Shown: positions 24,567 to 25,072 of the stretch, piece by piece
How the letters are laid out: every line of letters begins with the position of its first letter
Position numbering within the stretch: the first letter of the stretch is position 1
Origin: Escherichia coli O127:H6 str. E2348/69
Lineage (GTDB): Bacteria; Pseudomonadota; Gammaproteobacteria; Enterobacterales; Enterobacteriaceae
Assembly (NCBI RefSeq): GCF_000026545.1
Contig: NC_011601.1
DNA: 64,000 nucleotides
Direction: 5' to 3' (one strand)
Made by a program: the position numbers and the translations under genes
Notes under the pieces: generated by a model
The model's database searches: none
What the model was told of the DNA's origin: nothing
The model's input: only the letters and a program-made list of their open reading frames with translations

Positions 24567-25072
24567 TGCCACTCCTTTTTCACAGTTCCTTGTGCGCGCT
24601 ATTCTAACGAGAGAAAAGCAAAATTACGTCAATATTTTCATAGAAATCCGGAGTTATGAGCATCTCTGAGATAACATTGTGATTTAAAACAAAATCAGCA
24701 GATAAAAAAGTGTTTAATTCTATAAATTAACTCTGCATTATCGCAATTAAAAGGATGACAAATAGCATAACCCAATACCCTAATGGCCCAGTAGTTCAGG
24801 CCATCAGGCTAATTTATTTTTATTTCTGCAAATGAGTGACCCGAACGACGGTCGGCGCGCTTTTCTTATCCAGACTGCCGCTAATGTTGCTCATCTGGTC
24901 CGGCTGAATTTGAAAATTATTATAACGGAAGGGTATACAAAAAAAGTAATTTTGCTGGCGACTGCGAAACGGCATTCGCATTAGCGGTGAAGTTTGCCCT
25001 CGCCCAGCTGCTGCAATTACTGCTATAACGAGGCTGGTCTGGCGATAAATCCAGGCCAGCCATTGGTTGTGT

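Follow-up and report, generated by a model that had tools for sequence, protein, structure and literature searches.

The locus described here lies in the window, the whole 64,000-nucleotide stretch of Escherichia coli O127:H6 str. E2348/69 (NC_011601.1) that was analyzed, where a short spacer separates two intact genes on the minus strand: dgcZ (diguanylate cyclase DgcZ, 23676–24566) and dcp (peptidyl-dipeptidase Dcp, 25073–27118). Both genes come from the open reading frame (ORF) list and from PGAP annotation, the gene starts being carried over from strain PSUO2, whose sequence is 100% identical across the 900 bases tested. The longest dgcZ ORF reaches a GTG at 24572 (minus strand) and the dcp stop codon starts at 25073 (minus strand), leaving the 500-bp spacer (24573–25072) reported in the initial annotation of this DNA; counted from the start that PGAP assigns to dgcZ, an ATG at 24566, the interval is 506 bp. 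On the dgcZ side, the surrounding run consists of eamA, ydeE, mgtS, mgtT and dgcZ itself; on the dcp side it consists of dcp, ydfG and rspR.

Two further observations concern the dgcZ side of this run. A strong Rfam match to the Hfq-binding sRNA STnc560 (281.9 bits), which we take to be MgrR, lies at 23451–23664 on the minus strand, between mgtS/mgtT and the 3′ end of dgcZ. In O157:H7 TX 265-1 (L011 121–1582), a rhodanese-like gene and ftrA are found between ydeE and mgtS; both are missing from the window and from K-12, so that a further presence/absence polymorphism lies within a few kb.

The same flanks enclose a very different interval in K-12 (derivative AML003_par, NZ_CP062246.1), where 1484 bp hold an intact ydeI (393 bp, minus strand, 130 aa) and an intact ydeJ (519 bp, plus strand, 172 aa), as against 500 bp with only stubs of the two in the window. 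The K-12 gene order dgcZ-ydeI-ydeJ-dcp (presumably b1535–b1538) had been given correctly, and ydeI and ydeJ are indeed gone as genes from the place that they occupy in K-12; the possibility raised at the time, that K-12 has an equally short spacer, does not hold. The 336 bp adjoining dgcZ and the ydeJ/dcp terminator are collinear between the two genomes.

Neither strand of the spacer contains an ORF of at least 60 aa, again as first described, and the longest are of 53 aa (24820–24981, minus strand), 50 aa (24832–24984, plus strand), 49 aa and 47 aa. The frame that the initial annotation put at about 24839–24934, with 31 codons, and offered as a possible remnant was misplaced: it begins at 24832 on the plus strand (MSDPNDGRRAFLIQTAANVAHLVRLNLKIII), meets no stop after III, and runs on as TEGYTKKVILLATAKRHSH to a stop at 24984, making 50 codons. 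The suggestion of a remnant was right insofar as this frame overlaps what is left of ydeI, and wrong as to the frame itself, which is antisense to that remnant and encodes none of it, the true ydeI stub being on the minus strand. The 53-aa and 50-aa ORFs were also considered as new small proteins and rejected, since both combine stub, antisense and junction sequence and their expression is unsupported. An Rfam search of 23200–25300 at E ≤ 1 found nothing credible in the spacer, its sole match there being a chance one to a Togavirus element (14 bits, E = 0.46).

Anatomy of the spacer

A three-way alignment of the window, the K-12 derivative and GPEC673, a strain with an intermediate arrangement, resolves the difference in length into two sharply bounded gaps, 505 and 475 columns long, with 41 aligned bases between them; a second alignment covered 12 genomes. 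The dgcZ upstream region and the dgcZ–ydeI intergenic DNA (24567–24819) are collinear with K-12 and lie outside both deletions, and over 342 positions of the dgcZ-side region, alignment with K-12 and a B-type strain (ydeJ deleted, ydeI intact) gives 9 differences plus one 1-bp indel. Directly past the ydeI stop codon, a stable hairpin (24779–24808; −25.4 kcal/mol, z = −2.6) is presumed to be the ydeI terminator. One promoter-like site points toward dgcZ (24746→24717), which, against 1.6 such sites expected, is no more than chance.

What remains of ydeI is a pseudogene fragment at 24820–24908 on the minus strand, recognized by translation, Pfam and PGAP and made up of two bases of codon 102, codons 103–130 and the stop. 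These 89 nt translate into a peptide identical to K-12 YdeI 103–130 at 26 of 28 residues, and they align with profile positions 75–103 of the 103 in the Pfam BOF model (PF04076), scoring 24.8 bits against a cut-off of 25.8 bits. Membership in the YdeI/YgiW family requires a full BOF protein of ~130 aa; with 28 complete codons left, the window holds a fragment of the ydeI gene and not a member of that family. The upstream edge of the fragment (24908/24909) is the junction of a 504/505-bp deletion, located by the alignments and by a 54-bp junction query, that took ydeI codons 1–101 together with 200 bp of upstream intergenic DNA.

Beyond this junction lies a 41-bp island (24909–24949), the sole surviving piece of the ydeI–ydeJ intergenic region, which the alignments place toward its ydeJ end, immediately before the former ydeJ start. 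The island ends at a second junction (24949/24950), likewise located by the alignments and a junction query, where a 475-bp deletion begins 35 bp before the ydeJ start codon and ends within codon 147, so that codons 1–147 are gone. The initial annotation had missed the remnant that follows, the last 25 codons of ydeJ (24950–25028, plus strand), a pseudogene fragment of 79 nt identified by translation and PGAP that comprises the last base of codon 147, codons 148–172 and the stop. It reads NFAGDCETAFALAVKFALAQLLQLLL where K-12 YdeJ has HFAGDCETVLALAVRFALAQLLQLLL, each followed by a stop, with 22 of 25 residues identical (K-12 148–172); a second listing gives FAGDCETAFALAVKFALAQLLQLLL and, for K-12, FAGDCETVLALAVRFALAQLLQLLL, each again ending in a stop. 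The 26-residue stub has no Pfam match at E ≤ 0.1, and a YdeJ/RdsA protein requires a complete CinA domain (~155 positions), of which only this stub is present. Both stubs are marked as incomplete pseudogenes by PGAP/RefSeq (90-nt and 81-nt features). Between the convergent ydeJ and dcp ends, a GC-rich terminator-like hairpin of 11 pairs has been kept (25032–25061; −20 kcal/mol, z = −2.3) and is probably the shared, bidirectional terminator of the two genes.

The endpoints bear on how the DNA was lost. In the undeleted sequences they share two nucleotides (AA) for the ydeI deletion and one (A) for the ydeJ deletion, and no direct repeats of at least 6 bp at 504- or 475-bp spacing occur there, which is not what repeat-mediated deletion, homologous or slipped-strand, calls for. 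Nor do the junctions carry the signs that IS- or transposon-mediated deletion would leave (IS sequence, inverted-repeat ends or a target-site duplication): all of 24573–25072 has a counterpart in K-12 or B-type DNA, and nothing foreign is inserted. Because there is only 1–2 nt of microhomology, with no repeats and no IS elements, we infer two small deletions by illegitimate recombination, neither repeat- nor IS-mediated. Other routes to the same loss exist. Strain RM10740 also lacks ydeI and ydeJ, but its loss is IS1-mediated (L013 2528–6215), one IS1A splitting dgcZ and a second replacing the 5′ end of dgcZ, ydeI, ydeJ and the 3′ end of dcp, whereas the window has no IS and its flanking genes are intact; RM10740 is an independent loss.

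Distribution and polarity of the deletions

We surveyed 5426 complete E. coli genomes for each arrangement of the locus. The ydeJ-specific segment, which marks both genes as intact, is present in 3618 of them and the ydeI-specific segment in 4372, while 760 have an intermediate arrangement in which ydeI is intact and ydeJ is deleted at the identical junction. The window's ydeI-deletion junction, and with it the loss of both genes, was found in 1036 genomes (about one fifth) at 96–100% identity with a 54-bp query that has 27 bp on each side and can seed only across the junction. Together the three states account for 5414 genomes, leaving about 12 arranged otherwise, and the ydeJ-deletion junction was matched directly in 1630 genomes; about one third of E. 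coli carry this allele. Breakpoints were identical in all of the double-deleted (5/5) and intermediate (4/4) genomes that we aligned, with the ydeJ gap present in 9/9 ydeJ-deleted genomes.

At both junctions the window carries the double-deletion allele, which it shares with DSM 30083T (the type strain), ATCC 25922, Nissle 1917, O25b:H4-ST131, APEC IMT5155 and APEC O18, carriers that we take to be phylogroup B2. Deletions, junctions and stub lengths in ATCC 25922 (DR76_RS30030 / DR76_RS30025), O25b:H4-ST131, Nissle 1917 and DSM 30083T are identical to those of the window, and ATCC 25922 and ST131 differ from it by a few SNPs (1–3 in the spacer, 1/40 in the island). The intermediate allele (GPEC673, DA33137, elppa4, FXCREC043 and a strain named ST38) has the same ydeJ junction and the same adjoining 41 bp, but differs from the window in its full ydeI, its 240 bp of intergenic DNA and its spacer of 1011 bp. 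The absence of the two genes is thus not peculiar to E2348/69; it is a fixed allele common to 1036 of the 5426 genomes. That the short spacer is an artefact of assembly or sequencing has a negligible probability: no point speaks in its favor, the junction recurs in 1036 independently assembled complete genomes, and PSUO2 is 100% identical over the surrounding 900 bp.

Two side observations arose from these genomes. A few junction matches were counted as lying on plasmids, one of them near position 385476, at the very end of a 385,579-bp record (NZ_CP141085.1, E. coli KE48); the other record of that strain holds the sequence adjoining the match, which looks like a chromosome that was broken up or wrongly labelled during assembly rather than a plasmid copy. 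In addition, mgtT is annotated as frameshifted in the double-deleted ATCC 25922 and O84:H7 Trh52 (L004 75–180, L007 75–180) and is intact in PSUO2, ST131 and K-12.

The polarity of the change is settled: the deletions are derived, and the locus records loss and not ancestral absence. The truncated 3′ stubs of both genes alone suffice to establish loss over gain. An outgroup scan with a degenerate ydeI codon pattern, using one genome per species, matched no other Escherichia species and returned one Salmonella locus, in S. enterica subsp. diarizonae, where dcp, ydeJ and ydeI are adjacent in matching orientations and encode proteins 60% (YdeJ) and 79% (YdeI) identical to those of K-12. Since Salmonella retains dcp-ydeJ-ydeI, the deletions are therefore derived. 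The opposite polarity, a short ancestral spacer into which ydeI and ydeJ were inserted in K-12-like strains, would account for nothing beyond the bare presence/absence polymorphism and is extremely improbable, given that insertion leaves inexplicable the truncated 3′ ends kept in the window (26/28 and 22/25 residues identical to K-12), that Salmonella has the same gene order and orientation, and that ydeJ and ydeI are reported from Salmonella (PMC7387798; PMC8868313).

The order of the two losses was approached through the shared junctions and haplotypes of the 12 sampled genomes. Compared over 40 positions, the 41-bp island shows no differences from four genomes that have lost ydeJ and kept ydeI, and seven differences from K-12 and O157. 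This identity across both classes fits a ydeI deletion that arose on a ydeJ-deleted haplotype, and the simplest history would have ydeJ lost first and ydeI later, on that background. The proximity of the two junctions, just 41 bp apart, could also be read as the trace of one complex event, a deletion of ~980 bp in which a 41-bp filler was retained or put back, with ydeI later restored by recombination in the genomes that lack only ydeJ; the mosaic SNP patterns in the flanks do show that recombination has acted at the locus. We consider such a history very improbable, as in 760 genomes the ydeJ junction coexists with a complete ydeI and an unbroken intergenic region, the 41-bp segment of these genomes matches that of the window exactly and is collinear with K-12 at the expected position, and restoring ydeI in them would need a ydeJ-deleted donor, which is the intermediate state itself.

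In our reading, then, the short spacer was almost certainly left by two independent deletions, one after the other, in an ancestral dgcZ-ydeI-ydeJ-dcp locus. A 475-bp deletion would first have removed the ydeJ start region and codons 1–147; later, on that background and in a lineage that we take to be phylogroup B2, a 504/505-bp deletion would have removed ydeI codons 1–101 along with the promoter of the gene and the greater part of the divergent intergenic DNA. Left over would be non-coding debris, consisting of two 3′ stubs, the 41-bp island and the old terminators, in which we propose that no new function has arisen.

Because the flanking SNP patterns in the 12-genome alignment are mosaic, recombination has moved these alleles between backgrounds, and so a strictly nested-clade history is not proven. 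One segment of the alignment has a pattern of its own. Over 129 columns just upstream of the ydeJ deletion, in the half of the ydeI–ydeJ intergenic region nearer to ydeJ (columns 1651–1779 of the 12-genome alignment; window 24909–24949; L002 3955–4081; about 5953–6081 in the K-12 locus, L003), 17 fixed differences separate the ydeJ-intact from the ydeJ-deleted class and only 1–2 polymorphisms occur within each class; every other segment has at most six fixed differences and many within-class polymorphisms. In dcp, divergence between the haplotype classes at four-fold sites is 8–12%. We read the tract as two old haplotype classes that may have stayed tightly linked to the indel while their flanks were shuffled by recombination, an unusual pattern that leaves the reading of two sequential deletions unchanged.

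The lost proteins and what their absence means

The two lost genes encode proteins of recognizable families. YdeI (models PF04076, NF007471 and TIGR00156) is a periplasmic OB-fold stress-tolerance protein of the YdeI/YgiW family, the K-12 protein scoring 139 bits in Pfam (BOF PF04076) and 259 bits against NCBIfam NF007471, and it acts in peroxide and polymyxin tolerance. YdeJ (models PF02464 and NF002972) is a protein with a single CinA domain (PF02464).

Expression of K-12 ydeI in YESCA medium depends on RcdA, which binds the ydeI–ydeJ spacer (PMC3535384). A scan of the K-12 locus with the RcdA box (TTGTNNACA) gave 34 matches where 36 are expected by chance, and the sole near-match in the ydeI–ydeJ spacer has one mismatch. 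YdeJ lacks NMN deamidase activity (PMC3855486), and in Salmonella the protein has been renamed RdsA and reported to regulate DNA supercoiling, its promoter being supercoiling-responsive and mutant DNA more supercoiled (PMC7387798). As a matter of nomenclature, K-12 YdeJ (L003 6117–6635) is named "2-oxo-tetronate isomerase" by the NF002972 equivalog and by PGAP despite its CinA domain; a literature search for a link between ydeJ and 2-oxo-tetronate isomerase found nothing relevant, and the label may be a naming error that is spreading to thousands of genomes.

These functions raise the question of whether the losses were adaptive and not neutral, either pathoadaptively, YdeI and YdeJ being removed in extraintestinal-pathogenic lineages, or through rewired control of dgcZ. 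The rewiring version could draw on the shared orientation that dcp, the stubs and dgcZ now have within some 500 bp, and adaptation in general on the seeming fixation of each allele, with one junction over hundreds of genomes, on the deletion here of the spacer that RcdA binds in K-12 (PMC3535384), and on the more supercoiled DNA of the Salmonella ydeJ mutant (PMC7387798). Yet descent alone predicts fixation within a clade, neither the 336 bp adjoining dgcZ nor the two terminator hairpins have been disrupted, and a literature search linking ydeI or ydeJ to phylogroup differences found nothing relevant; we regard adaptive loss as unlikely. A bolder form of the idea, for which we see a slim chance, is that the stepwise loss, YdeJ/RdsA first and YdeI later in B2, was more than neutral decay, and that the 129-bp tract is an old regulatory polymorphism maintained by selection. 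Were this so, the tract might affect control of ydeI, supercoiling feedback or dgcZ-dependent control of biofilms, and the final resolution of the polymorphism in B2 might have helped to shape the extraintestinal or commensal lifestyle of the group.

Because about one fifth of sequenced E. coli carry both deletions, what the window contains is an ordinary, common lineage-specific double deletion, simple and of old origin, a strain difference that is already annotated and matters little beyond bookkeeping. The locus nonetheless illustrates cleanly how genes are lost through small illegitimate deletions, and its two exact junctions are convenient lineage markers. A strain with this arrangement makes neither YdeI nor YdeJ. 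Double-deletion strains are without YdeI, YdeJ/RdsA and the regulatory DNA between both genes, and findings from K-12 and Salmonella, namely the control of ydeI by RcdA, the tolerance conferred by YdeI and the supercoiling feedback loop of YdeJ/RdsA, are not transferable to the strains that carry this allele.
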